A DNA stretch of 64,000 nucleotides from an uncultured Planctomycetales bacterium (GCA_964648665.1 CAZYOA010000002.1:3056-67055), one strand, 5' to 3'. Positions 1,051 through 24,739 are shown, counted from the first letter of the stretch. Translations and numbers: made by a program. Notes: generated from the sequence alone by a model not told the origin.

Positions 1051-1063
1051 AAGAGTTCCCTTC

Positions 1064-5393: not shown

Positions 5394-5417
5394 TATTTGC
5401 TCCCTTTTAATTTCTTA

Positions 5418-7511: not shown

Positions 7512-8692
7512 TTTGTCACCTTTTCAAAAGATTTCTTAAAGATAAAAAAAGCTTTATCTATTTGTTTTTTTGTCACATTTAAAGCAGGCATAATGCGCAG
7601 AATATTTCCTTGTGTGCAATTAATAATAAGCCCGTTATTAAAGCATTCATCAAAAATAGGTTGTCCGTCGATGTTAAGTTCGATGGCAAGCATTAGTCCT
7701 AGGCCTCGAATTTCTGTAATGCATGAAAATTCATTTTTAAGTTCTTTAAATTTTTCAATGGCATAGCTTCCCATTTTCTTCGTATTCTTAAGCATGTTGT
7801 CTTTTTTAATAGCCTTAAAAACGCCTAAAGCTGCTTTGCAAACAATCGGGCTTCCACCAAAAGTCGAAGCGTGCATGCCAGGTTTGAAAGTGTCTGAGAT
7901 TTCTTTTTTAACAACAATAGCGCCAATAGGAAGACCTCCTCCTAAGGATTTTGCTAAAATCATAATGTCAGGTACTACGTCATAATGTTTGTATGCAAAC
8001 ATTTCACCTGTTCGACCAAGGCCTGTTTGAACTTCATCAAAAATAAGTAAAATATCTTTTTCATCGCAAATCTTTTTAAGTTCCTTAACATATTGTTTAT
8101 CGGCAATATTAATTCCGCCTTCTCCTTGCACAAGCTCAAGCAGGATGGCTATTGTTTTATCATTGATATTTTCTTTAACGGCCTCAATATCATTGAAAGG
8201 AACAATTCGAAATCCTTCGACAAGCGGTGAAAACCCATTTTGATATTTCTTTTGGCCTGTTGCTGACAAGGCACCCAGTGTTCGCCCGTGAAACGATTTC
8301 TTCATGCTAATAATTTCATAGCGCTTTTCTTTGCCATAGATGCGCGAGAATTTTATTGCAGCTTCACATCCTTCTGTACCACTATTGCAGAAGAATATTT
8401 TTGAAGGAAAAGACCAATGTACAATTTCTTTGGCTAATTTTAATTGATTTGGATGATAAAAGTTGTTTGGAATATGAATCAGCTTCTTAACTTGATCATA
8501 TACGGCTGATACAACTTTTGTGTGACAATGTCCAACGTTGCTCACGCCCCATCCAGGAAAGAAGTCTAAATATTTTTTTCCAGTAATATCAGTTAAAGTC
8601 ATGCCCTTGCCTTTAACAAAAATACTTGGCGTACGTGTATAGGTTGTTAAAATATAATTATCGTATTCTTTTAAGATTTCGAGTTTTCGCAT
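7508..8692 (-). CDS. argD: acetylornithine aminotransferase (class-III)
   Basis: 394 aa with FDEVQTGLGRTG and the PLP-lysine context ILAKSLGGGLPIG. Arg operon context. Confidence 0.88.
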   Translation of the reverse strand: MRKLEILKEYDNYILTTYTRTPSIFVKGKGMTLTDITGKKYLDFFPGWGVSNVGHCHTKVVSAVYDQVKKLIHIPNNFYHPNQLKLAKEIVHWSFPSKIFFCNSGTEGCEAAIKFSRIYGKEKRYEIISMKKSFHGRTLGALSATGQKKYQNGFSPLVEGFRIVPFNDIEAVKENINDKTIAILLELVQGEGGINIADKQYVKELKKICDEKDILLIFDEVQTGLGRTGEMFAYKHYDVVPDIMILAKSLGGGLPIGAIVVKKEISDTFKPGMHASTFGGSPIVCKAALGVFKAIKKDNMLKNTKKMGSYAIEKFKELKNEFSCITEIRGLGLMLAIELNIDGQPIFDECFNNGLIINCTQGNILRIMPALNVTKKQIDKAFFIFKKSFEKVTK

Positions 8693-9543
8693 TTTTTTAT
8701 AATCTGGGTTCCGACACCATGGTCGGTAAAGATTTCAAGTAAGATTGCGTGCTGCATGCGCGCATCAATAATATGAGTTTTACGAACGCCTCCATTAAGC
8801 GTTTCGATACATGCATCAACTTTTGGAATCATGCCTGCATGAACAATCTTTTTCTTTTTAAGTTGATCAACTTCTTCGGTTGTTAGTGTTGAAATTAATG
8901 AATTCGGATTTTTTGGATCTCGCAAAACACCTAAAACATTTGTTAATAAAACAAGCTTTTCAGCTTTCATTGAGACTGCAATTGCGCTTGCAACTTCATC
9001 GGCATTAATATTGTGCGGTTGTTTTGCTCCACAAATTCCCATAGGTGAAATAACTGTAATATGACCTTTTTTAAGATGAGTTTCAATGGCTTCTTTATTG
9101 ATGGTTTTAACTTCACCCACAAAACCAAGATCATGTTCAGCGACTTTTTTTTCAACATGAATAATGTTTTCATGACCAATAAGACCAGTGGCGTCACCTT
9201 TAAGATCTTTAATTTCACGCACAATTTTTTGATTTAATTTTCCAAGCTCATCGCTAACAATATTAAGAGTATGTTTGTCTGTTACTCGAATACCATCATG
9301 AAAGATAGCTTTTTTTCCATCCTCTTTTAAGCGAGCGTTAATAAAAGGTCCACCGCCATGAACTAAAATAGTTCGGATTCCGACATAGCTTAAGAAAACA
9401 AGATCTTCGAAAATATATTTTCGAATTCTATCATTCTCTAAAATGCTCCCCCCGTATTTAATAACGAAAACTTTTCGACGAAATGCATGAATATACGGAA
9501 GTGCTTCAACAAGAATACTGGCTTTTTTAATTATATTTTCCAT
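8671..9543 (-). CDS. argB: acetylglutamate kinase
   Basis: 290 aa with amino-acid-kinase motifs VIKYGGS and LVHGGGP. Confidence 0.9.
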   Translation of the reverse strand: MENIIKKASILVEALPYIHAFRRKVFVIKYGGSILENDRIRKYIFEDLVFLSYVGIRTILVHGGGPFINARLKEDGKKAIFHDGIRVTDKHTLNIVSDELGKLNQKIVREIKDLKGDATGLIGHENIIHVEKKVAEHDLGFVGEVKTINKEAIETHLKKGHITVISPMGICGAKQPHNINADEVASAIAVSMKAEKLVLLTNVLGVLRDPKNPNSLISTLTTEEVDQLKKKKIVHAGMIPKVDACIETLNGGVRKTHIIDARMQHAILLEIFTDHGVGTQIIKKCENSKS

Positions 9544-10666
9544 TAATTTTCACGTAACCGGTTGACAAGTCTGATGTGTAGACAGTCCACTGTGCGGATC
9601 CTGCGCCCAAATCAACATTGATACCGATATCTTTCTTTTCAAAAGAACTGAATTTTATTTTTAATTGTTTTTCTGTTATGTTTAATCCAAGTGATCCTAC
9701 TGCAGCGGCAACGCGTCCCCAGTTGGGATTGCTACCGTATGCAGCTGTTTTAACAAGGTTTGAGTTTGCAATAACAAAGGCGATCTTTTTTGCTAGAGCA
9801 TCTGTTTTTGCACCTGTTACTGAAATCGTGATAAATTTAGTTGCCCCTTCTCCATCGATGACAATCTTTTTTGCAAGATCAAGGCAGATGTGTTCTAACG
9901 CCTCATAAAACTTTTTATAGCTTGGTCCTTTTTTTGTAATCTTTTTATTTTTAGCAAGACCATTAGCCATGACGATAACCATATCATTTGTGCTCATGCA
10001 GTTATCGACTGTAATGCTGTTAAAAGATATGCTACAAGCATCTTTAAGCGCTAACTTTAAGATTGGTGCACTAATTGCAACATCTGTTGTAATGTAAGCA
10101 AGCATAGTTGCCATATTGGGAGCAATCATTCCAGAGCCCTTAGCCATAGCTCCAATTTTAACTTTTTTCTTTCCTATCATGATCTCAACAGCAATTTCTT
10201 TTTCAAATGTATCTGTTGTTAAAATTCCCTTTGCTGAAATATTTGCTCCTGAACGAGATAGTCCTTTAACAAGAGCTGGTACAGATTTTTTTATCTTTTT
10301 AAAAGGTAATGGTTTCCCGATAATTCCTGTTGAAGAAACTAAGACATCATTTTTTGATATATTTAAAAATTTAGCTGCAAGCTCTGATGTTTTTTCAGCA
10401 TAAGTTAGTCCAAACTTTCCTGTAAAGCAATTTGCATTTCCACTGTTGGTAATAATGGCTTGAGCTTTATTGTTTTTTATCTTTTTCTTTGTAACAACAA
10501 GCGGAGCTGCAATAATTGAGTTTTTTGTGAAAACGCCAACGCATGTAGATAAAATTTCGCTAAAGATAAGTGATAAATCAGGTTTTCCTGATTTTTTAAT
10601 TCCACACCAAAGACCGCTTGCTTGAAATCCTTGGGTTGCTGTGACCCCGCCTTTTATTTTTTTCAT
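9527..10666 (-). CDS. argJ: bifunctional ornithine acetyltransferase / N-acetylglutamate synthase
   Basis: 379 aa with the autoprocessing site context PNMATMLAYITTD typical of ArgJ. Confidence 0.9.
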   Translation of the reverse strand: MKKIKGGVTATQGFQASGLWCGIKKSGKPDLSLIFSEILSTCVGVFTKNSIIAAPLVVTKKKIKNNKAQAIITNSGNANCFTGKFGLTYAEKTSELAAKFLNISKNDVLVSSTGIIGKPLPFKKIKKSVPALVKGLSRSGANISAKGILTTDTFEKEIAVEIMIGKKKVKIGAMAKGSGMIAPNMATMLAYITTDVAISAPILKLALKDACSISFNSITVDNCMSTNDMVIVMANGLAKNKKITKKGPSYKKFYEALEHICLDLAKKIVIDGEGATKFITISVTGAKTDALAKKIAFVIANSNLVKTAAYGSNPNWGRVAAAVGSLGLNITEKQLKIKFSSFEKKDIGINVDLGAGSAQWTVYTSDLSTGYVKINGKYN

Positions 10667-10675
10667 TTTTAACCT

Positions 10676-11689
10676 TTAAGAAATTCCTGTATTTTCTTTG
10701 AATCCACAAATAAGATTCATATTCTGAACAGCCTGACTTGAAGCGCCTTTCATTAAGTTGTCAATGGCGCTTGTAATAACAAGCATGTTATTTTTAACAG
10801 CAAGGCCAATGTCGCAATAATTTGTATTTGTGACATTCTTTGTTTCTGGTTGTTGCCCGGGCTTTAAAATGCGAACAAATTCTTCGGTTTTATAAAATTT
10901 TTGATAAAGTTTATAGACATCATTTATTGTTATCGATTTCTTAAGCTGAATATAAATTGTTTCTAAGATTCCGTAATTCATTGGAATTAAATGTGGAACG
11001 AATGTTATTTTAATATCTTTTTGTGCAAGCCGTGATAAATAAATGGAAATTTCAGGGGTATGTTGATGACATAGAACTTTGTAGGCTTTTAAGTTTTCAT
11101 TGGCTTCTGCATAGATAAGATTGATAGCGGTTTTTCGCCCTGCTCCTGAAACACTAGATTTTGCATCAATAATAATTGAATTAATTTTTTTGCCATGTAT
11201 GGCGACTAAAGGTGCAAGTGCTAAAATTGCTGCTGTTGGATAGCATCCTGGATTTGCAATAAAAGTTGATTTTTTAATTTCTTCACGATAAAGTTCGGGA
11301 AGCCCATAAACAGATTTTGGTAAATTCTTTTTATCTTTATGTGTGACTTTGTACCACTTTTTATAAGTTGCTGAATTCTTAATTCGATAATCAGCACTTA
11401 AATCAATAACCATTTTTTTGGCCTTGAGTAATCCTGGAGTGATTTCCATAGATTTTGTATGTGGGACAGCAACAAAGAAAAGATCGCAAAGACTTTTTGC
11501 TTTAGATAGATTAAACTTCTCACAGACTAGACGAGTTTTGCCTGCAAGCTCTGGATGAATATCAGAAATTTTACCTGTAGTTGTATTAGCGCTAGCATAA
11601 GTTACTCGTACTTCAGGGTGATTTAAAAGAATTTTTAAAAGTAACTTTCCCGAATAACCGCTGATACCAATAATTCCAACATTAAGCAT
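10676..11689 (-). CDS. argC: N-acetyl-gamma-glutamyl-phosphate reductase
   Basis: 337 aa with an N-terminal GISGYSG NAD(P) motif and catalytic Cys context ANPGCYPTA. First gene of the arg string. Confidence 0.9.
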   Translation of the reverse strand: MLNVGIIGISGYSGKLLLKILLNHPEVRVTYASANTTTGKISDIHPELAGKTRLVCEKFNLSKAKSLCDLFFVAVPHTKSMEITPGLLKAKKMVIDLSADYRIKNSATYKKWYKVTHKDKKNLPKSVYGLPELYREEIKKSTFIANPGCYPTAAILALAPLVAIHGKKINSIIIDAKSSVSGAGRKTAINLIYAEANENLKAYKVLCHQHTPEISIYLSRLAQKDIKITFVPHLIPMNYGILETIYIQLKKSITINDVYKLYQKFYKTEEFVRILKPGQQPETKNVTNTNYCDIGLAVKNNMLVITSAIDNLMKGASSQAVQNMNLICGFKENTGIS

Positions 11690-12791: not shown

Positions 12792-14234
12792 TTAGATCTT
12801 TATAGCTTGATTGGGCTCGATGAGCTCAGATTGACTAAATTGTTGATTTTGATCGTTTGTAGTTTTATCTAAGTCTAAAACACCTATAAAATTTGTTAAG
12901 GGGGTAATATTGATGATGATTGGTACAAAGCCATCAAAGGATGTAGGGTCGATATCTTGAAGATCCAACGGAATTGTAAATTCAATCTCTCCACCTATTG
13001 TCGTAATATTCATACTTTTTTCATTAAAATCAATACCGCCTTTTGTAAAGCTTGTTTTGTGGGATTGGATATTTGTAGTAATAATTTCATTTTCAGATCT
13101 TGATTTTATGGCGGATGATGAATTTGCGCTTAGAGAAGGAATCCAGAAAAATGTTTTATTCGAACGAATGCCTTTGATAGGAGTAAAGCGATCATTTTGC
13201 GCATGAAGGCTTTCTAGATGTGGGGCCTGATTATTTTTTGGATTGATTTGATTATTTAATGCAATGGTATTCATTAAAAAGATAAGCCATTTATCTGACA
13301 TTTTATTAATCAAATTAAATGCATTAGGATAGTTTTCGTAAAGTTTAATAATTAAATCTTTGTTGTTCATTAGAGTGTCGATATGTTCTTGTGTAAAATT
13401 TTCAGTCATTGCATCATAAACTTTTTGATCTTTAAGAAAAAGACGGAAAGCATTTAACTTGGCACGAACTTCACTGGGATCACTAAAATATTCAACGTGA
13501 GGATCGTTATAGTTGTCGTCGTAAATAGAGTGAAAAAGATAATTACTTGTTGATTCGAAAAGAAAATTTCCTGCTGCGTCCGAGGTATGCGACGCTTCCT
13601 CGACAAACGTTGATGGCGGTGCGTCTTCCCAGACTCCTGTAATCATAAGGCCGTTATCATGAAATCCTCTAACTTCTGCACTATCACTTTCTTTATAGCT
13701 TGAACTCTTTTTATAAAATTCTTGCAGAGAATCATATGGGAGGATTTTAAATTTAACGGCTTTATAATATTGCTTTCGCGCTGCATCAAGTTGTTCTGCC
13801 AATAATTCGACTTGTTCAACAGCCGCGCTGTCTCCAAGATAGAGGCGGGCTTCTTTTGTGAGTCGTTCAAAATATTTTGGTGAGTTCATGTAGGATTCAA
13901 AAAATTCTAATCCCTCGTTCTTTATGTTTTTTGTTTTCGTCGTATCTCCTGAGGTTTCATTGAATTTAGATTTAGAATCTTGATTCGCATATTGATCATT
14001 AAAATTAAATTTCTGATTTAAAATTTTAGATATTGGTAAAGAGTTTAAAAGATCGCGACTTTTCGCATTAACGTTTTGGATATTTAGAAATGCAAGAAAA
14101 AGAAAAGTTAAAAGTGAAGTTTTAAATATAGATTTCGATCTATGATGTTTTGAGGTTCTTATCATGCTGCTTGCGCTAGCAAAACTTTCTTTCGTTAATT
14201 CAAAATTACTTGAAGCGATATTGTTGGGGTTCAA
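12792..14234 (-). CDS. downstream (C-terminal) half of split giant paralog A; carries the family tail module
   Basis: The track ORF starts at a TTG. The same frame is stop-free for a further 144 codons up to 14666 with no ATG or GTG. The first ATG (14163..14165) precedes a signal-peptide-like segment MIRTSKHHRSKSIFKTSLLTFLFLAFLNIQNVNA|KS. The C-terminus carries GGIDFNEKSMNITTIGGEIEFTIPLDLQDIDPTSFDGFVPIIINITP (12870..13040), shared with the two other giants. Confidence 0.8.
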   Translation of the reverse strand: MNPNNIASSNFELTKESFASASSMIRTSKHHRSKSIFKTSLLTFLFLAFLNIQNVNAKSRDLLNSLPISKILNQKFNFNDQYANQDSKSKFNETSGDTTKTKNIKNEGLEFFESYMNSPKYFERLTKEARLYLGDSAAVEQVELLAEQLDAARKQYYKAVKFKILPYDSLQEFYKKSSSYKESDSAEVRGFHDNGLMITGVWEDAPPSTFVEEASHTSDAAGNFLFESTSNYLFHSIYDDNYNDPHVEYFSDPSEVRAKLNAFRLFLKDQKVYDAMTENFTQEHIDTLMNNKDLIIKLYENYPNAFNLINKMSDKWLIFLMNTIALNNQINPKNNQAPHLESLHAQNDRFTPIKGIRSNKTFFWIPSLSANSSSAIKSRSENEIITTNIQSHKTSFTKGGIDFNEKSMNITTIGGEIEFTIPLDLQDIDPTSFDGFVPIIINITPLTNFIGVLDLDKTTNDQNQQFSQSELIEPNQAIKI

Positions 14235-14635
14235 GAAGAAAGTGTTTTTGTATCCAACGCCAAGTAGACCTTCATTAGCAAGGAGATTTTCAAGTTCTGA
14301 ATTTAATACACCCTGGTTAAAGAAATCGTATTTTTGATTTTGCGAAGGGTCTGCGGAGGATTGATAGGTGTCAACTTTCTTTGAATCTAGTTCATATAAA
14401 ACATCTATGACTTTTGAATTCTCAAAAATTAATTTTAGATGTTCAAAATTATATTTTGGGGTAAAAATCCCATCTCGTTTTGTTTGTGGAAAAGCTTTTC
14501 TTGTGGCATTTCCGATACTATTTTTATTCTTTTTGCCCCTGTTTCCCGTGCCACATGACCAATAAATAACTCCACCATTTTTCTTAAGTACATTTTTTGA
14601 TTTTGATTTTGGATAATTAATAAGATATTGTGCGT

Positions 14636-17600
14636 CTAGAGTTCGAGGGGAAACTTTTTTTCTTTTTTATTTTCTTTTGGCACGCCAAAACTAGGCAATA
14701 ATTCAGATAAATCAACACCATCGGCACCATCAAGATAACCGAGATCTCCAGTCTTAAGGTCGAAAGTGTTATTGTTAAAAGAATCGCCGAGTATAACCGC
14801 GCTCCCGCTATCGCCGCCATGTCCTGCAATATTTAAATAATCAGTTGGAATCGTATTTTCAAGAATCCAATTAAATTCTTTTAGTCCTGAAGCCTCATAA
14901 TATAAAACTTGATATCCTCGCTTATCAAAATCTAAAATTGCATCTTCAACACTGTAGTGATTTTTGCTCTTAGAAAAATGAGGACCATCGCTTCTGCCAA
15001 TAATGAAAGTTGCTGTAGGGTGATTTTGATTTGGATTTTTTCTATTTTTGAGAATGATTTTAAGTGCTTCGGTAGAAAAGCGACTTGGAATAAGGATGCT
15101 GTGTTGTGCGAGTTCATAAATAAGCTTTAAGTCTTTAGGTGTCGATTGTTGAATGCCGCCCAAATTATCAATTGTTCTTTCTAGCTTTTTAACAGGAAGG
15201 TGATTTGTATTTTCTAAAAGAAGATTTGTTGCTTGCTTGTTTCCCGTTAAGGCAAGGCCGACAAGTTTTTGTAGAGCTGGTTCATTTACCTTTAAAGTTC
15301 CATCTTCGTTTTCGCTGTAGTGGTCAAAAACCATGCTTGCAAGAATAGCAATGTTTTTGGGGATCGGATTCTCAAAATAGAAATCTAGATTAAGATTCTG
15401 AAACTTATCAATAATTTTAAGTCTTGAAATAAATGAGTCATTTGTTGCAAGAACATCAAATGCTTCAATGTTGCCACTTTCTACTTCTGAAAAGAGCCAA
15501 TCTGCAAAATTTAGCAATATTTCTTGATTTTCTTCGTTGTTTTCAGAACCAAAAGAAAGAACATTAAGATTCCAGTCGATGAGGCTAAGATTGTTTTTGT
15601 ATTGTTCGATGATAGACTCAAGATCAAGATCATTAAAAACTTTTTCAGCTTTTTCAATATAGTAAGTATCAGCTAATAAATCTAGTGTTCGTATAGATTC
15701 CGGGTCCCCTTGGTTGCATTTCTGTTCAAGAAGCGAGTAATCCATTTCTTCAAATTTTTCTTTAAGGCTTTTATCTTGTCTAAAGCCTTCTCCTATAGTG
15801 CCATACGAGAAGATAAGAAGATTAAATATAGTATTATAGTTTCCTTGTTGGGCTGCCTTAATGTATAAATCGTGTGAATCATGAAAGTTTTTCTCAAGAT
15901 CTTCTATTGCTTTCTTAGCTTTCGGGTTCCAGGCCTCTAGGTCTCCCAAAGCGTTTAAGGCTGTGGGATCACCACTCTGAGCCTTTTGAATAATTATCGA
16001 TAAATCTAAGTTTCTAAGAAGTTTCATGTGAAGTTGAGCAGACCTTCCAAAAGTACCTTGTGGTCCCAAGGCGATGCATGCGGCAAAGATGACATCGTCT
16101 AGAGCTTTAACGCTTTCAATGTCTCCTTGTTCAATGCTATTTTGAAAGTATTCGTATCCTCCCTTTTGCATCCAATCTAGGAAATCTTCTGACAATTCAA
16201 GTTTCCATTTTTCTGATCCTTCAGCAATCAATTTTCGAGCAGCAATAATTGGCGCATAGGGGTTATTTTGAGTAACTTGATCCATAATGTCTTGATTGTC
16301 CATTTGCCTGATAGTTTCTTTTTCGGCAGAGCCTTCAGTGCTAACAATTCCTGTTAAATCTTCATACGCTTGTGCGTTGTGTTGTGACTTCATGTATTTA
16401 TTAGAAAATTTTACATCAAAGCCATTGCTTGAGATATGATCGTAGCTAAATTTATCAAAAGTCTTTTTTGAGACACTGTATCTATGGCCATCGATTTTTA
16501 TTGAATAATCATCGGCTCCGATGCTGTATCTACCACTGCTAAACATTCTGCTAGGAGAAGCGTTTTCTTTCCGTTTAGAATATTTATACTGATTCCATGT
16601 TTTAGATCGATGTACATATTTATTTTTTCGATTTGTAAGTTTTTTACTTATATATTCGTCTTCTAGCGTATAAAAATCATTGGCTTGGACATCGACTGTT
16701 TTATCTCCAATAGTGATTGTGTATTTCCATTCTTTAGTTGTTGCGTTATTTTGAGGGCCTTGAGAGAAATCAATTATTTCGCTAGATGTGAGGATATTTT
16801 CTAGTATATTTTCTATTTGAGATTTTTGTGATGAACTATTTCTTGCTTGCTCAGACTTAATGGGATCAATCTGACCATTCTGGTATGCTTGGGCTATAGC
16901 GCTTCCTGAAAATGTTAGCGCAATTGAAACAAGTGTGATGGCTGTTGCTTTTTTAAATTTCTTAATAATGGAGCTTGCGCTTTTTCTCCCCTTCGTACTG
17001 TTTGGTTTTATAATTTCAACATTTTTTGCACTGAAATTTCCAATAAGACCTCCAGAGAAATATCTGCGTTTGACATTTTTCTGTAAATAGGGGTCATATT
17101 CCTTCCGAACATAATTACAGACACCTTTATCCATAGCTGTAATGTATTGATCATAAATTTTATTTGAAATATCATCAACATCAATACCTTTAATTTTTTG
17201 TTTATCAGAATAAATTTTATTAATTATGAAATCTTTGAGATTATTCTTAAACCAATAAGCTAAAACTAAGGAATTGTAGATTTGACGAAGTTTGGCAAAA
17301 TTCTTTCCATAGTTGATTTCTTTGGTGAGTTCAGGAATAATAATTTCTCGAACAATTTCAGAAGCTAGTTTATTTTCAGTTTTTCCTTCAAAGTCTTCAT
17401 CCTCCATCAACGCCAAGTAATCTTGCTCGAGCATGACTTTAAGTTCACTTTTAACAATGAAAGCCTTGTTGCCTTGAACATAAATTTCAGCTTTTTGTGG
17501 CATAATCCAAACTTTATTAAATGTATCAATAGGGATATTTGTTGTCCCATACGTTTCGTATGCTTGTTTGTAGATTTTTTTCCAAAACTTTTTTCCAAGT

Positions 17601-18046
17601 TCATCTTCTGGGTAAATGAGCGATGCTGTAATTTGTTTTAATAAATAGTCTTGGGATAGCATGTCCGTTCCCATCTCTGTTTGAGCAAGAGCTTCTGGGA
17701 TCATACGATCCTTTTCGTATGGGGAAAGATTAACCCAGAGATTGTTTTCGGGGATGGTTAGGGCTGTTAAGAAGTATTTAATAAGTCTTTCGGATTCATT
17801 CTTTAGTTCGGAATCGGAAAGTTTTGTGTCTCCAGAGTTAACAATGAAATCAAGCTTAAGGGCATTCTCAGGATGAATTTTTATGCCTTGTATTACGACA
17901 GGGTTAGATGATTGGCTTGGTTTTATTATTGATCCAGGTTGCGGTAAGATTAGCGTATTTTGGGCATGAACATGATCTGTAAAGGTTGTCATGAGTAAAA
18001 AACATATGGCAAGGCATATGCGTATACATTTTGTTAATATATTCAT
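14636..18046 (-). CDS. giant paralog A, upstream half (1136 aa): signal peptide, family head module, Sel1-like repeats, first half of a caspase-like domain
   Basis: Signal peptide MNILTKCIRICLAICFLLMTTFTDHVHA|Q. Residues ~30-335 align with the N-termini of 25732..32403 and 32545..39009. The ORF ends 60 codons after an AGHGG motif. RBS GGGGAAAAGG lies before the ATG. Confidence 0.9.
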   Translation of the reverse strand: MNILTKCIRICLAICFLLMTTFTDHVHAQNTLILPQPGSIIKPSQSSNPVVIQGIKIHPENALKLDFIVNSGDTKLSDSELKNESERLIKYFLTALTIPENNLWVNLSPYEKDRMIPEALAQTEMGTDMLSQDYLLKQITASLIYPEDELGKKFWKKIYKQAYETYGTTNIPIDTFNKVWIMPQKAEIYVQGNKAFIVKSELKVMLEQDYLALMEDEDFEGKTENKLASEIVREIIIPELTKEINYGKNFAKLRQIYNSLVLAYWFKNNLKDFIINKIYSDKQKIKGIDVDDISNKIYDQYITAMDKGVCNYVRKEYDPYLQKNVKRRYFSGGLIGNFSAKNVEIIKPNSTKGRKSASSIIKKFKKATAITLVSIALTFSGSAIAQAYQNGQIDPIKSEQARNSSSQKSQIENILENILTSSEIIDFSQGPQNNATTKEWKYTITIGDKTVDVQANDFYTLEDEYISKKLTNRKNKYVHRSKTWNQYKYSKRKENASPSRMFSSGRYSIGADDYSIKIDGHRYSVSKKTFDKFSYDHISSNGFDVKFSNKYMKSQHNAQAYEDLTGIVSTEGSAEKETIRQMDNQDIMDQVTQNNPYAPIIAARKLIAEGSEKWKLELSEDFLDWMQKGGYEYFQNSIEQGDIESVKALDDVIFAACIALGPQGTFGRSAQLHMKLLRNLDLSIIIQKAQSGDPTALNALGDLEAWNPKAKKAIEDLEKNFHDSHDLYIKAAQQGNYNTIFNLLIFSYGTIGEGFRQDKSLKEKFEEMDYSLLEQKCNQGDPESIRTLDLLADTYYIEKAEKVFNDLDLESIIEQYKNNLSLIDWNLNVLSFGSENNEENQEILLNFADWLFSEVESGNIEAFDVLATNDSFISRLKIIDKFQNLNLDFYFENPIPKNIAILASMVFDHYSENEDGTLKVNEPALQKLVGLALTGNKQATNLLLENTNHLPVKKLERTIDNLGGIQQSTPKDLKLIYELAQHSILIPSRFSTEALKIILKNRKNPNQNHPTATFIIGRSDGPHFSKSKNHYSVEDAILDFDKRGYQVLYYEASGLKEFNWILENTIPTDYLNIAGHGGDSGSAVILGDSFNNNTFDLKTGDLGYLDGADGVDLSELLPSFGVPKENKKEKKFPLEL
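14654..14660 (-). other. candidate -1 recoding site, or homopolymer indel site, joining the two halves of giant paralog A
   Basis: In gene orientation the sequence is ...GAA AAT AAA AAA GAA AAA AAG TTT CCC CTC GAA CTC TAG. The heptamer A_AAA_AAG lies in the zero frame of the upstream ORF. A -1 slip, or one extra A in the A7 run, reads on as GTT TCC CCT..., which is exactly the frame of ORF 12792..14234. Confidence 0.5.
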
Positions 18047-18420: not shown

Positions 18421-19179
18421 TTATCGATATTTAACTTTTAGCAAACAAAGACCCTTAGAGGGTGCTGTTGGACCTGCGAGTTTTCGATTTTCTGCTTTTA
18501 AAATTTTAGGTATCTTATTAGGGTTTATTTTGCCTAAACCGACTTCTATGAGAGTTCCGACAATATTTCGAACCATTTTATACAAGAAGCCGTCTGCTTC
18601 AACGTTTATTGTTATGATGTCGTTTCTTTTTTGAACATTAATTTTCTTAATTGTTCGAACAAAGTTAATTGTTTTTCCGGATTTTCTCTTTGCAACATCA
18701 ACAGCAACAACAGATTTAAAATTCTTCTTTCCAGCAAATTTCTGCGAAGCTTTTTTCATAGAAATAATATCTAAGGGTCTAGGATAATAAAGGCAAAATT
18801 TTTTTATCTGAGTTGATCGAGTAGCTCTATTTAAAATTGTATATTGATAGATTTTACTTTTTGCATTGTACTGTGAATGAAAATTGTGTTTTATTTTAAT
18901 AGCTTTAGTGATAACAACGTCGTCAGAAATATTTCCATTGATGGCTTTTAAGATTTTATTTGGAGTGAGAATAGAAGTTGTTTTGAAATGTGCTACTTGT
19001 CCGACGGCATGAACACCGGAATCGGTACGTCCAGCACCAATAAGTGTAATATCTTCATTTAAAACTTTATCTAAGGCTTTTTTGATTTCACCTTGAACGG
19101 TTCTCTCCCCTTTTGCTTGAATTTGCCAGCCAGAGAAATTTGTTCCATCGTATTCTATGGTCAGCTTAATTGTTTGCAT
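18421..19179 (-). CDS. truA: tRNA pseudouridine(38-40) synthase
   Basis: 252 aa with GAGRTDSGVHA, the catalytic Asp motif. Confidence 0.9.
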   Translation of the reverse strand: MQTIKLTIEYDGTNFSGWQIQAKGERTVQGEIKKALDKVLNEDITLIGAGRTDSGVHAVGQVAHFKTTSILTPNKILKAINGNISDDVVITKAIKIKHNFHSQYNAKSKIYQYTILNRATRSTQIKKFCLYYPRPLDIISMKKASQKFAGKKNFKSVVAVDVAKRKSGKTINFVRTIKKINVQKRNDIITINVEADGFLYKMVRNIVGTLIEVGLGKINPNKIPKILKAENRKLAGPTAPSKGLCLLKVKYR

Positions 19180-19189
19180 AAATCAAGGT

Positions 19190-20209
19190 TTAAGAATTCT
19201 TTTTGATAAGTTCTTCGGCAATTTGAATGGCGTTAAGGGCAGCGCCTTTTCGAAGATTGTCAGAAACAACCCAAAGATTTAGTCCGTTTTCAACAGTGTT
19301 GTCTTCTCTGATACGTCCAACAAATGTATCGTCTTTTCCTTCTGCGTAAAGCGGTGTTGGGTATTGATTATTTTCAAGATCATCAATAACGGTAATGCCA
19401 GGTGCATCTTTTAAGAGATCGATAGCTTTCTGACGAGTGATTTTCTTTTTTGTTTCAATATTGATTGATTCGGAATGAGCGCGAACAATAGGAACTCGAA
19501 CGCATGTTGCTGTTATCTTAATTGACTCGTCTCCCATAATCTTTTTTGTTTCGTTAACCATTTTAATTTCCTCTTTGGTGTAAAATCCTTCTTGAGGAAT
19601 ATCGATGTGAGGAATAAGATTATAGGCAATTTGATATTGAAATTTATTAATATCATTATCATTTATAGCTTCGCCATTCGCAATCTTTTTTTGTTGAGCG
19701 TTAAGCTCTGCAATGGCTGGTGCACCTGCTCCAGATACAGACTGATATGATGAAACAATAACTCGTTTAATCGTTGCGAAATCATGCAATGGTTTTAAAG
19801 CAACAACCATTTGAATTGTTGAGCAATTTGGATTGGCAATAATGCCTTTATTTTTGCTAATGTCGTTAGGATTAACTTCTGGAACGACCAAGGGAACATC
19901 TTCATTCATTCGAAATTGACTTGTGTTGTCAATTACAACAGCTCCAGCTTTTACAGCCGATGGTGCGTATTCTTTGCTAATGGCAGATCCAGGAGAAAAA
20001 AGAGCAATTTCTACGCCTTTAAAGGCATCATGTGTCAGCTTAACAGCTTTAAATTTTCGTCCTTGAAGTTCATATTCAGGGCATTCTTCTGGTCGAGATG
20101 ACATCGGATAAAGTTCGTTAATAGGAAAATTGCGCTCGTCAAGAATTTTAAGCATTTCTTGACCTACCGCTCCTCGAATACCTACAATAGCAACATTATA
20201 TTTCTTCAT
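19190..20209 (-). CDS. asd: aspartate-semialdehyde dehydrogenase
   Basis: 339 aa with an N-terminal IVGIRGAVGQ motif and catalytic Cys context ANPNCSTIQ. Confidence 0.92.
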   Translation of the reverse strand: MKKYNVAIVGIRGAVGQEMLKILDERNFPINELYPMSSRPEECPEYELQGRKFKAVKLTHDAFKGVEIALFSPGSAISKEYAPSAVKAGAVVIDNTSQFRMNEDVPLVVPEVNPNDISKNKGIIANPNCSTIQMVVALKPLHDFATIKRVIVSSYQSVSGAGAPAIAELNAQQKKIANGEAINDNDINKFQYQIAYNLIPHIDIPQEGFYTKEEIKMVNETKKIMGDESIKITATCVRVPIVRAHSESINIETKKKITRQKAIDLLKDAPGITVIDDLENNQYPTPLYAEGKDDTFVGRIREDNTVENGLNLWVVSDNLRKGAALNAIQIAEELIKKNS

Positions 20210-20222
20210 TTTCTCTTATTCT

Positions 20223-21278
20223 TTAAAGTGTTTGAACAACTAAATCGCCAACTTCGCTTGTGGAATATCCCATTTTTCCAGCAGCAAGACTTTTTAGTTT
20301 TGTCGTAACAACAGATCGTGCTGCTTTTTCAACTTTTTCGGAAGCTTCGTTTTCTCCGATTTCTTTAAGTAACATTGAAAGAGCACAAATCGCTGCCATT
20401 GGATTAATAACATTTTTTCCTGTATATTTAGGCGCAGATCCGCCAATAGGCTCGAACATAGAAACACCACTAGGATTAATGTTTCCGCCTGCAGCTACTC
20501 CCATGCCACCTTGAATCATAGCTCCTAAATCTGTGATGATATCGCCAAACATATTGTCAGTTACAATAACATCAAACCATTCAGGATTTTTTACAAACCA
20601 CATTGTTGTGGCATCAACGTGTGCATAATCAGTTTTTACGTCTGGATATTCTTTAGCAACTTCATAAAAAGTTCTTTCCCAAAGATCAAATGCATATGTT
20701 AATACATTTGTTTTTCCGCAAAGCGTTAGCATTTTCTTTTTTCCGTGTTTTTGAGTATATTCAAATGCATAACGTAGACATCTTTCAACGCCTTTTCTCG
20801 TGTTATATGAAACTTGAGTTGCAACTTCATCTTGAGTGCCTTTGTTCTGAAATTCTCCGATTCCTTTATAAAGGCCTTCAGAGTTTTCTCGCACAACAGT
20901 AAAGTTAATATCCTCTGGTTTTTTATCTTTTAGTGGACAAAATCTTTCATCGTAAAGTTGAACAGGTCTTAGATTAATATATTGATCAAGATCAAAGCGA
21001 GCTTTTAGCAGAATACCTTTTTCTAAAATACCTGGCTTGACGTCTGGATGTCCAATGGCGCCAAGATAAATTGAATCAAAAGTTTTTAGTTCTTCAACCG
21101 CAGAATCTGGTAAAATTTCTCCTGTTTTAAGATAGCGTTCGCCACCAAAATCGTAAGAAACGCTTTCGTATTTAAATCCGCATTTTTCAGAAATAGCCTC
21201 AAGGACTTTTAAGCCTTCATTGACGACTTCTGGGCCTGTTCCATCACCTGGGATAATTGCAAGTTTATAGTTTTTCAT
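20223..21278 (-). CDS. leuB: 3-isopropylmalate dehydrogenase family (isocitrate/isopropylmalate DH fold)
   Basis: 351 aa with [22 protein letters not shown] and [14 protein letters not shown] motifs. The leuB-asd-truA neighbourhood is a common synteny. Substrate specificity (IPM versus tartrate or homoisocitrate) is not certain. Confidence 0.75.
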
Positions 21279-21289
21279 TGTGCTCCTTA

Positions 21290-22534
21290 TTATTCTTGGA
21301 ATTTCTTAACAGCAAGAGTTGCGTTGTGTCCACCGAATCCAAGAGAATTTGATAAAGCAACATTAACGGTTGCCTTTCGCGCTTCATTAGGGACATAATC
21401 AAGATCGCATTCTGGATCAGGCGTTTCATAATTAATCGTTGGCGGAATCATGTCATTTTTAACTGCTAAAGCAGCTGCGACAAACTCAATTCCTCCTGCT
21501 GCGCCTAAAAGATGTCCTGTCATAGATTTTGTTGAGCTGATAGCTACTTTTTGAGCGTGTTCACCTAAAGCAATTTTGATAGCTAGTGTTTCAGTCTTAT
21601 CGTTTAAGATTGTTGATGTTCCGTGAGCGTTGATATAAGAAACGTCCTCTGAATTTAAGTCAGCATCTTTAAGCGCGTTCGTTATCGCCTTAGCTGCGCC
21701 ACGACCCGAAGGTTCTGGAGCTGTGATATGAAAAGCATCAGAAGTTCTTCCATATCCAACAAATTCTGCGATAATTGGTGCCCCTCTTTTTTTAGCATGC
21801 TCTAAAGTTTCTAAAACGACAATGCCTGCGCCTTCAGCCATAATAAATCCATCGCGATTTGAATCAAAAGGACGACTAGCTTTTTCAGGTTCATCATTTC
21901 TTTGCGATAACGCTTTAATGGCAGCAAAGCCTCCTACGCCCATTGGCGTATTTGCAGCTTCTGTTCCTCCTGCAATCATAATATCCATTTCACCAAATTG
22001 CATAAATCTTAAGGCATCTCCAATTGAATTTGTTCCAGATGCACAAGCGGTAACAACACATGTTGCCATTCCTTTTGCACCCGTTTCAATAGCGACTTGA
22101 CCAGCTGCTTCATTGACAATAAACTGAGGGATAAAAAATGGAGAAATCTTTCTTGGGCCACGAGACAATAAAAGCTCATGATTGCGTTCAATCGATTCTA
22201 GTGCGCCAACACCGGATCCAACAATAACGCCCATGCGATCTGCGTCCACAGATTTAACATCTAGCTTTGCGTTTTTAACAGCTTCGCGACATGCAACAAC
22301 AGCAAGTTGTACAAATCTTGAAAGTTTGCGTACGTCTTTAGAATCAAAATAATCTGCAAGATCTAAATCTGTAACATCTCCGCAGATTCGCGCGGAAAAC
22401 TTAGAGGCATCGAATCGGTCGATAGGATGAATACCGCTTTTTCCTTTTATCAGGGAGTCCCAAAATTTTTCAACACCAGTTCCGACAGGCGATGTGACGC
22501 CTAAACCTGTTATAACAACTCTTTGTTTTTCCAT
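21290..22534 (-). CDS. fabF: beta-ketoacyl-ACP synthase II
   Basis: 414 aa with active-site contexts TACASGTNS, NAHGTSTILND and GFGGHNATL. Confidence 0.93.
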   Translation of the reverse strand: MEKQRVVITGLGVTSPVGTGVEKFWDSLIKGKSGIHPIDRFDASKFSARICGDVTDLDLADYFDSKDVRKLSRFVQLAVVACREAVKNAKLDVKSVDADRMGVIVGSGVGALESIERNHELLLSRGPRKISPFFIPQFIVNEAAGQVAIETGAKGMATCVVTACASGTNSIGDALRFMQFGEMDIMIAGGTEAANTPMGVGGFAAIKALSQRNDEPEKASRPFDSNRDGFIMAEGAGIVVLETLEHAKKRGAPIIAEFVGYGRTSDAFHITAPEPSGRGAAKAITNALKDADLNSEDVSYINAHGTSTILNDKTETLAIKIALGEHAQKVAISSTKSMTGHLLGAAGGIEFVAAALAVKNDMIPPTINYETPDPECDLDYVPNEARKATVNVALSNSLGFGGHNATLAVKKFQE

Positions 22535-22614
22535 AGGATAAATTTTCCGATAAATAACTTTGCCCCGACGAAGATCTGCCGAGGCAAAATTTAATGTTAA
22601 ATGAATGGATTTAA

Positions 22615-22854
22615 TTATTTACTAGTAGCTTTTTCTGCGACGTATTTAATAACGTCAGAAACTTTGCTCATTTTTTCAGCATCTTCATCAGGAATTTCAA
22701 CATTAAACTCTTCCTCTAAAGCCATAATAAGCTCAACCGTATCTAACGAGTCAGCTCCTAGATCATCGACGAATGATGATTCTGGATTCACCTCTTCCAC
22801 TTTTACTCCAAGTTGTTCTGCGATAATCGATTTTATCTTTTCCTCGTTTGCCAT
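22615..22854 (-). CDS. acpP: acyl carrier protein
   Basis: 79 aa with [19 protein letters not shown], the phosphopantetheine serine motif. Confidence 0.95.
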
Positions 22855-22888
22855 TCACTGCCTCCTTTTTGATCCTTCTTCTACTAAA

Positions 22889-23629
22889 TTAGATAGCCAT
22901 TCCACCATCAACTCTGATGGTTTGACCTGTAATATACTGTGCTTCTTTTGAAGCAAGAAATAAACATGCTCCAGCAACATCTTCTGGAGTTCCCATCTTC
23001 CGGAGAGGAACGCTTTTTAAGATTTCCTGGCGGGTCTCTTCCTTAAGCTGATCGGTCATCTCTGTCTTAATATATCCTGGTGCGATAGCGTTGACATTAA
23101 TGCTGCGTGATGCAAATTCCCTAGCCAATGATTTTGTAAGCCCAATAATGCCGGCTTTGCTAGCTGCGTAATTTGCCTGCCCGATGTTTCCTAAAATACC
23201 AATGACCGATGCAATGCTAATAATTTTTCCCTTTCGGGCCTTTAGCATTGGCCTAGCAATTGCTTTGCAGCAATTAAAGGTTCCTTTAAGGTTGACCTTG
23301 ATGACTGCATCCCAATCCTCTTCTTTCATTCGTAAAAAAAGATTATCTTTGGCGATGCCTGCATTGTTAATCAATATATCAACACGTTTATATTTGTCAA
23401 GGATTTTATTGATCATTTCCTCAACGGCAACTAAACTTGTAACATCGCATGGAAAATTATCAGCAGAAAGTTTTGATTCAACAAACTCGCTGACTGTTTT
23501 CTTGCAGGACTCTTCATTGATATCTGAAATAATTACAGTTGCTCCTTGTTTTGCAAATGCAAGCGCGATTTCTTTGCCGATACCGCGTGCAGAACCCGTA
23601 ACTAAAACAATCTCATCTTTAAATTGCAT
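22889..23629 (-). CDS. fabG: 3-oxoacyl-ACP reductase (SDR)
   Basis: TGSARGIGK cofactor motif and the YAASKAG catalytic motif. I prefer the ATG at 23627..23629 (MQFKDEIVLVTG, preceded by GGGGA) over the track's GTG at 23641. Confidence 0.9.
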   Translation of the reverse strand: MQFKDEIVLVTGSARGIGKEIALAFAKQGATVIISDINEESCKKTVSEFVESKLSADNFPCDVTSLVAVEEMINKILDKYKRVDILINNAGIAKDNLFLRMKEEDWDAVIKVNLKGTFNCCKAIARPMLKARKGKIISIASVIGILGNIGQANYAASKAGIIGLTKSLAREFASRSINVNAIAPGYIKTEMTDQLKEETRQEILKSVPLRKMGTPEDVAGACLFLASKEAQYITGQTIRVDGGMAI

Positions 23630-23689
23630 TCTTGTCCCCACGATCTTAATAATAAATAAAATTTGTATTCATTAACTTTGAATGAACTT

Positions 23690-23717
23690 ATATTATCAAT
23701 ATCATGCTAATTTGCAA
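23690..23717 (-). promoter_or_regulatory. sigma70-type promoter of fabG-acpP-fabF
   Basis: In gene orientation it reads TTGCAA (23712..23717), a 16-nt spacer, then TAATAT (23690..23695). An inverted repeat TTCATT-N7-AATGAA (23668..23686) lies just downstream. Confidence 0.45.
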
Positions 23718-23796
23718 GGAAAAAAATAAAAAAAAGTTTTATAGATTAAAAATGATTAAATTTGGATTGGAAAACTTAAAGCGGAAAATGTTTTGA

Positions 23797-24198
23797 TTAT
23801 AAAAATTCAAGCTTAACTTCAATTAAGCCGCGATTGGTTGGATCAAGTTTTTTAAAAGCAGTTTTGGTAAGATCAATAACTCGCCCTTTTCGAACATAGC
23901 GTTCATGCGGACCGCGATCATTAACGCGAACGGTAATAATTTTTCCATTTTCGATATTAGTAACGCGAATTTCCCGATTAAATCCAACTCCCCAGATAGC
24001 ACATGTCATAGCACTGTCGTCAAAGATCTCGTTGTTGGCAGTTTTTTGTTTGATGCCTGGAGACTTTTGCGAATACCAAGAAGCTTTTCCATGGCGGATG
24101 GCTTTTGGTTTTTTAAAAGGTGTTGTTATGCTTGCCATCGCCTTTGGTAGAGCAACGCTCAATGCCAAAAGTACGACAATAATTAGAATTTTTTTCAT
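23797..24198 (-). CDS. RlpA-like double-psi beta-barrel lipoprotein/secreted protein
   Basis: 133 aa with a signal peptide MKKILIIVVLLALSVALPKAMA. GKASWYS...TANNEIFD...VRVNDRGP is the RlpA/DPBB pattern. Confidence 0.8.
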   Translation of the reverse strand: MKKILIIVVLLALSVALPKAMASITTPFKKPKAIRHGKASWYSQKSPGIKQKTANNEIFDDSAMTCAIWGVGFNREIRVTNIENGKIITVRVNDRGPHERYVRKGRVIDLTKTAFKKLDPTNRGLIEVKLEFL

Positions 24199-24288
24199 AT
24201 ATGATATGTCCTTCAGGAATTATTTCCTGAAAGAATAGCACATGAATGGGAAATGTCAAGCTAGAATTTAATTTTAAGAGAAATTCTT

Positions 24289-24705
24289 CTAGTCTTCGTT
24301 TTCGCTCGAAATAGATTCAACTGTAATGGCGCTAGAGCCACAATTAAGACTTGATTTAAACTTTTTCTGAAGCCAAATTTTTAGAAGTGCTCGCGTGAAG
24401 GGAATTAAAAGAATAAAGCCAAAAATATCTGTTAATAGCCCTGGTGTTAGTAGAGTTAGTCCTCCCACAAGGATCATAACACCGTCAATCATCTGATCTG
24501 TAGGCATATTTCCGCTGCTAAGTTCTTTTTGTATGTTTTGGACAACCTTAAACCCTTGATGGCGGGCAATATGAGCTCCTAGCACGCCTGTGCCGATGAC
24601 TAGAATGAATGTATTAAAGATTCCAAATGATTCTCCAAGCTTAATGAAAATAAATAATTCAGTTGCTGGAATAACGGTAAATAATAAAACAAGTGTTAGA
24701 AACAT
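24289..24705 (-). CDS. fxsA: FxsA family membrane protein
   Basis: 138 aa with the pattern PATELFIFIKLGE...GTGVLGAHIARHQG...LVGGLTLLTPGLLTDIFGFILLIPFTR typical of FxsA. Confidence 0.8.
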   Translation of the reverse strand: MFLTLVLLFTVIPATELFIFIKLGESFGIFNTFILVIGTGVLGAHIARHQGFKVVQNIQKELSSGNMPTDQMIDGVMILVGGLTLLTPGLLTDIFGFILLIPFTRALLKIWLQKKFKSSLNCGSSAITVESISSENED

Positions 24706-24739
24706 ATTTTTCTCCCAAAAGTGAAAAAATAAAAGCCCT

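Follow-up and report, generated by a model that had tools for sequence, protein, structure and literature searches.

A conserved head domain and a C-terminal motif frame variable, enzyme-rich cargo in a large protein family of Omnitrophota

Introduction

A stretch of 64,000 nucleotides from an uncultured Planctomycetales bacterium (GCA_964648665.1 CAZYOA010000002.1:3056-67055; the window) carries three genes, A, B and C, which take up about 29% of its length. They encode large proteins that open, behind a signal peptide, with a common module of about 300 residues, termed the head. What does a module contribute that is kept constant while the remainder of the protein varies? An earlier annotation of the window, referred to as the original prediction, had proposed a role in trafficking, translocation or receptor binding. 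Most relatives considered below belong to Omnitrophota, an uncultivated phylum of very small, probably predatory or parasitic organisms with many huge and poorly annotated proteins. The head is read here, at about even probability, as a constant and probably non-catalytic extracytoplasmic carrier of Sec-exported modular proteins with enzyme or toxin cargo.

Results

Conservation of the head in proteins A, B and C

The first 335–365 residues of A, B and C can be aligned along their whole length (MAFFT). In tblastn comparisons, identity amounts to 64% between the heads of A and C (345 amino acids (aa), E 2e-156), 59% between A and B (349 aa, E 4e-139) and 67% between B and C (351 aa, E 1e-160). 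This similarity is far above chance, since the next best matches have E ≥ 0.12, and no fourth head copy was found in the window. Between the boundary motifs LPxPG and YFSGG the amino-acid identity is 65% (A/B), 71% (A/C) and 74% (B/C). Over the same stretch the nucleotide identity is 66–72%, third codon positions of the heads are 41–50% identical, and the longest perfectly identical runs of aligned nucleotides span just 12–17 nt. By the method of Nei and Gojobori, the proportion of synonymous differences (pS) is 0.74–0.86, the synonymous distance (dS) is saturated for A/B and A/C and 3.5 for B/C, and the nonsynonymous distance (dN) is 0.18–0.25, with dN/dS of about 0.05 for B/C. Saturated synonymous sites in combination with low dN point to old paralogs under strong purifying selection.

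The original prediction had drawn the same picture of age and constraint, and had named a dN/dS near 1 as the value that would speak against it. All sequence blocks it quoted as common to the three heads recur in the MAFFT alignment, its residue ranges were correctly converted into coordinates, and its estimate of two-thirds identity between the heads of B and C agrees with tblastn. A B/C run of 35 nt with one mismatch (31544..31578 versus 38231..38265) is exact. An insertion of about 30 aa in B has to be corrected: B is longer at this position, but by about 19–21 residues, within a loop that is variable in A and C as well.

Scale of the family in Omnitrophota

A profile of the head was compared with 1.84 billion cluster representatives (clusters at 50% identity) and matched 8,404 protein clusters, 6,833 of them at E ≤ 1e-30. 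In all 150 matches listed, the head is present in a single copy and starts at residue 1–49 of proteins of 420–4,969 aa. A word-indexed search with the head of C retrieved 1,081 proteins, the best 120 of which are 48–65% identical and come nearly all from metagenome-assembled genomes (MAGs) of Omnitrophota; none of these 120 has a Pfam domain on the head. Across the phylum the identity of the head is 50–60%. Species-representative genomes contain at least 590 copies, several per genome. The 80 listed of these at least 590 copies stem from MAGs named Omnitrophota, Omnitrophica, or carrying other or generic labels, and the closest among the matches listed belongs to Ca. Aceula meridiana (78%).

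Some MAGs with family members bear the label 'uncultured Planctomycetales', Heimdallarchaeota, Auribacterota or Elulimicrobium, which probably reflects placeholder names, binning contamination or differences in taxonomy, not a wider distribution. Tandem arrays of two to three family genes in the same orientation, as formed by B and C in the window, are common; 14 of the loci fetched hold two to three copies (L006, L017, L019, L022, L027, L038, L039, L045, L047, L050, L051, L073, L077 and L080).

Pairing of the head with a C-terminal motif

A second constant element is found at the opposite end of the proteins. The last 60–90 residues or so of B and C are alike (39% identity over 87 aa, E 1e-13, BLASTP) and follow the pattern GGIDFN..NMNI.T.G..I.F.IP.......GF.P.II.I.P. 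In the family this element is a C-terminal motif (CT) of about 55 residues, GGID[FL]...GFxPVIINIxP. Hidden Markov models (HMMs) of head and CT were scanned across 81 loci and the window, 1.29 Mb in all, which yielded 101 open reading frames (ORFs) with a head and 80 with CT; 68 hold both. Among the 33 ORFs with a head only, 21 are truncated by the end of the locus. Eight of the 12 CT-only ORFs lie directly 3' of a head-only ORF, and three of the remaining four lose their 5' end at the start of the locus. The eight split pairs are separated by runs of masked N (four cases: L025, L030, L038 and L059), by in-frame stops (three cases) and by a frameshift in the window. Since ORFs with one of the two elements are thus mostly truncated or broken, head and CT are essentially obligatory partners in Omnitrophota. 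The head as the constant module of the original prediction therefore stands as the constant part before a variable remainder, but it is just one half of a two-part frame.

Stand-alone head genes, which the original prediction had suggested looking for, were rejected as a class of their own, because the candidates are broken genes or artefacts caused by an insertion sequence (IS), in-frame stops, a frameshift or masked N runs. In one protein (P0037), the head ORF stops right after YFSGG and the next ORF begins 23 nt downstream. In another (P0079, locus L082), the ORF stops just past YFSGG; about 270 nt further on lies an IS256-type transposase gene (3017..4309), followed by the remainder of the gene, with CT, in two ORFs. 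In-frame stops within otherwise continuous head-to-CT frames were seen at L019 18749..18751, L052 4692..4694, L080 8011..8019 and L034 ~2906. They comprise TAG, TAA, and TGA plus TAA, and as none predominates, recoding is unlikely. The genes of the family thus seem prone to disruption.

CT was rejected as an autonomous domain: its AlphaFold2 (AF2) model, based on 69 sequences, reaches a predicted template modelling score (pTM) of 0.21, is devoid of regular secondary structure and is most confident at FTPVIINITP. In the model CT thus has the character of a linear motif, or of a strand in need of a partner. At the C-termini of B and C, neither Pfam nor NCBIfam gave a match to Por_Secre_tail, TIGR04183 or TIGR04131. 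Moreover, the tail of CT in Omnitrophota is polar or acidic and lacks a basic cluster, which differs from the layout of LPXTG, PEP-CTERM and GlyGly-CTERM sorting signals.

Composition of the cargo

The segment between head and CT, termed the cargo, varies in length from about 100 to over 4,500 residues (median of about 950 in one sample). True orthologs excepted, the cargos of different members are mutually dissimilar. The identity of protein C to its ortholog in Ca. Aceula meridiana is 71% for the head, 59% for the cargo and 64% for CT. Residues 451–752 and 1797–2069 of C, the latter including the HAD hydrolase (32992..33528), have no counterpart in this ortholog (L002), and entire modules are lost or gained by the cargo between close relatives.

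Pfam matches in the cargo of 29 full-length members are of cytoplasmic type. They comprise S-adenosylmethionine (SAM) methyltransferases, pyruvate phosphate dikinase (PPDK), phosphoglycerate kinase (PGK; E 3e-107), SNF2/ResIII/DEAD helicases, radical SAM proteins with B12-binding domain, uridine kinase/PRK, phosphoribosyltransferase, UDPGP, CofD, NUDIX, metallophosphatase and HEAT repeats. Protein B, which is predicted to be fully exported, includes regions with an ABC1/UbiB-type atypical kinase and an M48 metallopeptidase motif (26377..26952 and 30730..30954). The Pfam scan of A, B and C gave no recognised toxin domain, and an ORF 3' of one Omnitrophota head gene matches MafB19-type deaminases.

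Clustering of the neighbouring genes at the 81 loci revealed response regulators/kinases, ABC-F ATPases and a TlpA-like thioredoxin as the only recurrent ones, and no recurrent secretion machinery was found beside the family genes at these loci or in the window. A gene for a membrane-anchored TlpA/AhpC-like thioredoxin lies directly 5' in L001, L005, L008, L030 and L044, which may be synteny within one group of orthologs. Long conserved antisense ORFs cover the head region at 25 loci (e.g. L057 ~9998..11173) and can most likely be explained as shadow ORFs that arise from sense-strand conservation.

Export signals and hydrophobic segments

Proteins A, B and C each begin with a signal of n-h-c layout and an AxA↓Q cleavage site, as seen by inspection and hydrophobicity scan and as expected for Sec-dependent export. 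In the family LPxPG has a median position of 42, so that the signal is often long. No hydrophobic segment was found within the head by a Kyte-Doolittle scan. Between head and CT, 39 of the 57 complete members have no such segment and the other 18 contain one or two, so that standard topology rules predict complete export for most members. A transmembrane helix behind the head was rejected as a general trait, given these 39 members and just 8 of 77 homologs with a helix at the threshold. Hydrophobic segments directly follow the head at 16892..16948 (residues 367–385 of A) and 37843..37899 (residues 371–389 of C), and a further one near the start of ORF D (about 14090..14165) is internal to a fused A+D protein (see below). 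The internal segments of A, C and D resemble signal peptides, with a hydrophobic core between a basic flank and an AxA-type end.

Comparison of the head with known families and folds

The head could not be assigned to any known family. Scans of A, B and C against Pfam-A and NCBIfam gave no match, nor did a Pfam-A scan of 60 head homologs, a comparison with PDB sequence profiles (alignment A2 and two-phylum alignment A6) or a search of phage records. The structure of the head was modelled by AF2 from 60 sequences with a predicted local distance difference test score (pLDDT) of 77 and a pTM of 0.71. The model displays two long β-hairpins (residues 51–70 and 179–206) together with helices of 18–30 residues; the terminal PRKYFSGG is of low confidence. 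A Foldseek search of the PDB with this model gave no significant match. The best ones, NheA and colicin Ia (E 0.08–0.3, TM-score 0.12–0.16), are noise, and significant similarity to the fold of ClyA/Nhe/Hbl α-pore-forming toxins or of colicin Ia is thus not seen. An internal duplication was rejected, as hhalign of the two halves gave a probability of 3.8%. The original prediction had named a match to a known enzyme family as evidence that the head is just another catalytic domain; Pfam, NCBIfam, PDB profiles and Foldseek gave no match of this kind.

Homologs in Actinomycetota

A homologous domain is present in Actinomycetota. Six large Streptomyces plasmids match the head by tblastn at 24–31% identity over 72–85% of its length (best E 1e-30). 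The HMM of the Omnitrophota head detects residues 425–680 of the 773 residues of S. fungicidicus WP_121549542 (E 2.5e-48) and a second protein (E 4.5e-26). With the Streptomyces protein as query 220 proteins were retrieved; named sources are Streptomyces, Kitasatospora, Frankia, Parafrankia, Actinacidiphila, Streptacidiphilus and Nocardia. The actinobacterial homologs carry alternative N-terminal domains, and many of the matches span the constant half alone.

The actinobacterial proteins are arranged as signal peptide, variable N-terminal domain, head-like domain, conserved stretch of about 50 residues, Pro/Gly/Ser-rich linker and C-terminal transmembrane segment. The latter has an Arg-rich tail; one case has a LAxTG-type signal instead, which remains under the model cut-off (NF041528, 26.7 versus 30 bits). 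In 10 of 63 members the N-terminal domain is an XOO_2897-like deaminase (PF14440; consensus HSE...CxxC), and deaminases of the XOO_2897 clade are recognised as polymorphic-toxin domains (PMC3239186). The homologous domain thus resides in the C-terminal half, behind a toxin-type deaminase, so that the head cannot be considered intrinsically N-terminal, as the original prediction had taken it to be. The domain is bracketed by PGGIDF(S/T)xLELRYL at the junction with the toxin (120 of 120 proteins) and by Yx(Y/F)GGVD(L/F) at its end (119 of 120). Moreover, the actinobacterial homologs possess two invariant cysteines.

A joint alignment of both phyla has 34 invariant columns, including WVNL.P, G...L..D...K, P....G...W, WI.P..A, LR, A.W and Y..GG; none is Ser, Cys or His. 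Comparison of CT with the segments following and preceding the actinobacterial domain by hhalign gave probabilities of 18% and 44% over 14 and 28 columns, respectively, which is suggestive only. Five Streptomyces loci have no neighbouring genes in common. The homolog on a plasmid of Streptomyces sp. Caat 7-52 (L084 6852..9233) carries a different N-terminal domain with D...E.K, by eye similar to PD-(D/E)xK nucleases, and a LAxTG-type sortase signal, and a gene with an ADP-ribosyltransferase domain is located nearby.

The family genes in the window and the junction of gene A and ORF D

Positions of all features are compiled in Table 1. The family genes are situated among core biosynthetic operons (331..11689 and 18421..25246), not in an obvious mobile island; the neighbours are dapB/dapA/dapF/lysA, argH/G/F/D/B/J, truA, asd, leuB, fabF/fabG, folB, trmB and ispG.

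Gene A itself lacks CT, and the downstream adjoining ORF D (12792..14234) bears CT at its end. A −1 shift at an A_AAA_AAG heptamer gives rise to a single head-to-CT protein of 1751 aa. The frame of D is open for about 140 codons 5' of its first start codon, with no start codon in between. As about 160 stop-free codons would occur by chance with a probability of about 7e-6 (calculated by hand from the base composition), A and D are one gene. Programmed frameshifting at the junction was not supported: the heptamer is canonical, yet no RNA structure was found downstream of it (folding z = +0.78). An indel in the run of seven A is more likely and could be due to an assembly error, a pseudogene or phase variation. 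Across the frameshift (about 14560..14800, residues ~1060–1165 of A+D), NIAGHGGDSG and VIYWSCGTGN resemble by eye the His/Cys dyad of clan-CD (caspase/CPD-like) peptidases. A peptidase-like motif of this kind (AGHGG...SCGTG) was rejected, as Pfam gave no match even at E = 10.

Table 1. Coordinates of family features in the window (aa, residues of the respective protein; ↓, signal peptide cleavage site).
Feature	Position (nt)	Strand	Evidence
Protein A	14636..18046	minus	1136 aa ORF
A, Sec-type signal peptide, aa 1-29, ...HVHA↓Q	17960..18046	minus	sequence inspection, Kyte-Doolittle scan
A, head domain, aa 34-333, LPQPG to RRYFSGG	17048..17947	minus	MAFFT alignment, tblastn
A_AAA_AAG heptamer, −1 shift links frame of A to frame of D	14654..14660	minus	reading-frame analysis
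CT closing ORF D (probable 3' part of gene A)	12864..13040	minus	HMM scan
Protein B	25732..32403	minus	2223 aa ORF
B, signal peptide region, aa 1-37, ...YALA↓Q	32293..32403	minus	sequence inspection, hydrophobicity scan
B, head domain, aa 42-362	31318..32280	minus	MAFFT alignment, tblastn
B, cargo with M48 peptidase (aa 484-558) and ABC1/UbiB-type kinase (aa 1818-2009)	25903..31317	minus	Pfam, NCBIfam
B, CT, GGIDFNDKNMNIKTSG...GFWPMIISISP...	25735..25902	minus	B/C BLASTP, family alignment, HMM scan
Protein C	32545..39009	minus	2154 aa ORF
C, signal peptide, aa 1-29, ...ALA↓Q	38923..39009	minus	sequence inspection, hydrophobicity scan
C, head domain, aa 34-335	38005..38910	minus	MAFFT alignment, tblastn, AF2 model
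C, cargo with post-head hydrophobic segment (aa 371-389) and HAD hydrolase (aa 1828-2006)	32764..38004	minus	Pfam, hydrophobicity scan
C, CT, GGIDFNAENMNITTKG...GFTPVIINITP...LLGL	32587..32763	minus	BLASTP, family alignment, HMM scan

Discussion

The head as a proposed extracytoplasmic carrier

As a carrier, the head would be the counterpart of the constant regions in polymorphic toxins. A Sec signal would route the protein out of the cytoplasm, and the head, which in Omnitrophota lies directly behind the signal peptide, would together with CT frame a gene-specific and largely cytoplasmic-type enzyme cargo. Most likely, the head would bind a conserved partner and in this way hold, present or deliver this cargo beyond the cytoplasm. 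Candidate partners are an envelope component of the producer or of a target cell and possibly CT itself. This reading is supported by the constancy of the head across a family with variable cargo, by its coupling to CT, by the export signals and by the actinobacterial homologs beside toxin domains. The lack of an invariant Ser, Cys or His, in combination with the missing family match, suggests that the head is probably not an enzyme. Moreover, a dN/dS of about 0.05 and an identity of 50–60% throughout the phylum fit a conserved partner and not a variable receptor, and the lack of dedicated neighbouring machinery in either phylum fits a self-contained module which depends on Sec only. Export of the whole protein, a role in binding or delivery and lack of catalysis are what we infer from sequence. 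A role in trafficking, translocation or receptor binding, as put forward by the original prediction, is compatible with all findings, which do not choose among the three; of these, membrane insertion as a means of translocation has the least support, given a head free of hydrophobic segments.

Several points weigh against a carrier function. Radical SAM proteins with B12-binding domain, PGK, PPDK, SNF2/DEAD helicases and SAM methyltransferases are ill-suited to work outside the cytoplasm, so that either the proteins do their work within another cell or their topology is mispredicted. One or two signal-peptide-like hydrophobic segments follow the head in roughly a quarter to a third of the members, A and C included, and part of such proteins would then be cytoplasmic. 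An active site could still be built from the invariant D, E, K, R and N residues. Finally, the model of the head is of moderate quality only (pLDDT 77), and the most conserved segment, WVNLSPYExDR, is modelled at low confidence.

Alternative functions of the head

The Sec signal, the conserved N-terminal domain of about 300 aa, the very long variable remainder and the occurrence of several paralogs per genome would suit a secretion-recognition domain, as in two-partner secretion (TPS), which is read in the periplasm by an outer-membrane transporter that passes the long cargo on to the cell surface, with CT as a second sorting or anchoring signal. Strong conservation is likewise typical of a domain that has to fit one machine. 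However, an Omp85/TpsB or other secretion gene is never a recurrent neighbour in the window and the 81 loci, the predicted fold is α/β and not a β-helix, and Pfam gives no TPS match. As the homologous domain is, in addition, shared by monoderm Actinomycetota, which lack an outer membrane and in which it lies 3' of the toxin domain, we consider recognition by such a transporter unlikely. Slightly less probable is a processing module which cleaves GG(I/V)D(F/L)-type junction motifs, or presents them for cleavage, and thereby frees the cargo or toxin. Every border of a constant with a variable part bears a motif of this type, namely PGGIDF or YxYGGVDL in Actinomycetota and YFSGG or GGIDLN in Omnitrophota. 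Among the actinobacterial proteins, 120 of 120 have it where toxin and domain meet and 119 of 120 at the domain end, the head ends in an invariant YFSGG and CT starts with an invariant GG, and release modules beside toxin domains are common in polymorphic toxins (PMC3482391). On the other hand, no invariant Ser, Cys, His or Thr nucleophile is found beside the motif, no peptidase family matches, and the motif may simply be the first β-strand of a structural element.

That the head is an unrecognised enzyme needed by all members, acting for instance on a cell-envelope polymer, is given a slim chance. Polar residues are invariant across the two phyla (N77, T94, D104, K108, E178, N218 and R227; numbering of alignment A6), conservation is very high, and the invariant loop is of low model confidence, as active-site loops often are; yet neither Pfam nor NCBIfam nor the PDB, whether by sequence, profile or Foldseek, yields a match, and many of the invariants are Trp, Tyr, Phe, Gly and Pro, which is what a structural core or a binding surface would typically show. 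The least probable of all readings is a membrane-translocation or pore-forming domain of the colicin, diphtheria-toxin T-domain or ClyA type which conveys the cargo into a target cell. Here, the predicted long helices and two long β-hairpins, the non-significant top matches to NheA and colicin Ia, the entry into another cell that cytoplasmic-type cargo would require, and the transfer of macromolecules to prey reported for an Omnitrophota predator (PMC13153191) are opposed by Foldseek values at the level of noise (E 0.08–0.3, TM-score 0.12–0.16) and by the absence of a hydrophobic helix or hairpin from the head.

The putative carrier could moreover be built from two pieces. The actinobacterial domain forms one contiguous stretch between GG(I/V)D(F/L) motifs, and in Omnitrophota the head ends with YFSGG and CT starts with GGIDLN, which suggests that head and CT may be parts of one structural unit in which CT docks on a head as a donor strand. 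Given the weak profile evidence (hhalign 18–44%), we regard this as rather unlikely, if more probable than any of the alternative functions above. The cargo of Omnitrophota, up to thousands of residues, would then be inserted at the distal GG junction. Intramolecular docking would close the cargo into a loop, and intermolecular docking would chain members head-to-tail into an enzyme coat on very small cells. In either case a new platform, present throughout the phylum, would place cytoplasmic-type enzymes outside the cell or in prey.

Significance for the huge proteins of Omnitrophota

With more than 8,000 protein clusters, the head/CT frame defines a family and offers a handle on the problem of huge proteins in Omnitrophota. 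It predicts one route and one partner for all members, and its two short invariant motifs can be used as search targets in proteomes. Since culturable Streptomyces hold homologs beside a known toxin domain, the head-like domain is open to genetics and biochemistry.

Giant proteins of the same phylum ('Archaeovorins' and others) resemble the family in their PPDK, methyltransferases, HAD and glycolytic enzymes, HEAT repeats and signal peptides. According to two reports (bioRxiv 10.1101/2023.11.21.568195, 10.64898/2026.06.07.730766), they exceed 10,000 aa and have many transmembrane helices and SecA-like domains, their N-terminal regions lack identifiable domains, and cytoplasmic-type enzymes are puzzlingly predicted to be extracellular; the passages searched in them do not mention a common head or C-terminal motif. 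The longest head-bearing proteins seen have 4,969 aa or are truncated at the end of the locus, and the comparison covers proteins below the size of the giants.

Comparison with known secretion and toxin systems

Exoproteins of the TPS pathway (TpsA, FHA, CdiA; type Vb) share with the family a Sec signal, a conserved N-terminal region of about 250–300 aa and a long remainder that varies between paralogs. The TPS domain and the head are both constant modules of polymorphic exoproteins, with a role in trafficking established for the former and proposed for the latter. The TPS domain, however, is a β-helix with NPNL/NPNGI motifs whose gene adjoins a TpsB gene, whereas the family is characterized by a predicted α/β fold, no Omp85 neighbour, an obligatory C-terminal motif and homologs in monoderms. 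In line with this, the TPS domain model Haemagg_act (PF05860) did not match A, B, C or the 60 homologs (hmmscan, Pfam-A), no adjacent TpsB (Omp85-type) gene was found among the neighbours in the window or at the 81 loci, and the two β-hairpins and long helices of the AF2 model do not form a right-handed β-helix.

Cargo proteins of type IX secretion (T9SS) likewise combine a Sec signal and unrelated cargo with a conserved C-terminal signal of about 60–80 residues, and are encoded many per genome. The C-terminal domain of T9SS cargo is a folded β-sandwich covered by Pfam/TIGRFAM models and found in Bacteroidota, and T9SS cargo has no common N-terminal domain. In contrast, no model matches CT, and folding by itself is not predicted for it (pTM 0.21), so that an autonomous β-sandwich of about 80 residues is not seen in AF2. 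In MARTX toxins, conserved N- and C-terminal regions surround variable internal effector domains, as in the family; unlike the family, these toxins follow type I secretion without a Sec signal and possess glycine-rich repeats and a cysteine protease domain.

Polymorphic toxins, in particular Sec-dependent ones with XOO_2897-like deaminase domains, and the family both combine a constant module with interchangeable enzymatic or toxic modules (PMC3239186, PMC3482391), which is reflected here in the unrelated cargos and in the alternative N-termini of the actinobacterial proteins. Only part of the family has a recognised toxin domain, with PF14440 in 10 of the 63 actinobacterial members. In classical polymorphic toxins the toxin is C-terminal and an immunity gene adjoins, whereas in the family it is N-terminal (Actinomycetota) or internal (Omnitrophota), and no conserved small immunity-like gene was seen downstream in five Streptomyces loci. 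Furthermore, the cargos of Omnitrophota are large arrays of metabolic-type enzymes in contrast to the single toxins of polymorphic systems. A description of the head domain was not found in the literature searched, including papers on Omnitrophota genomics, giant proteins, polymorphic toxins and XOO_2897. In conclusion, the principle of a constant module with polymorphic cargo is known; what is new is the particular module, the way it is paired with CT, the scale it reaches in Omnitrophota and the metabolic-type enzymes that make up its cargo.

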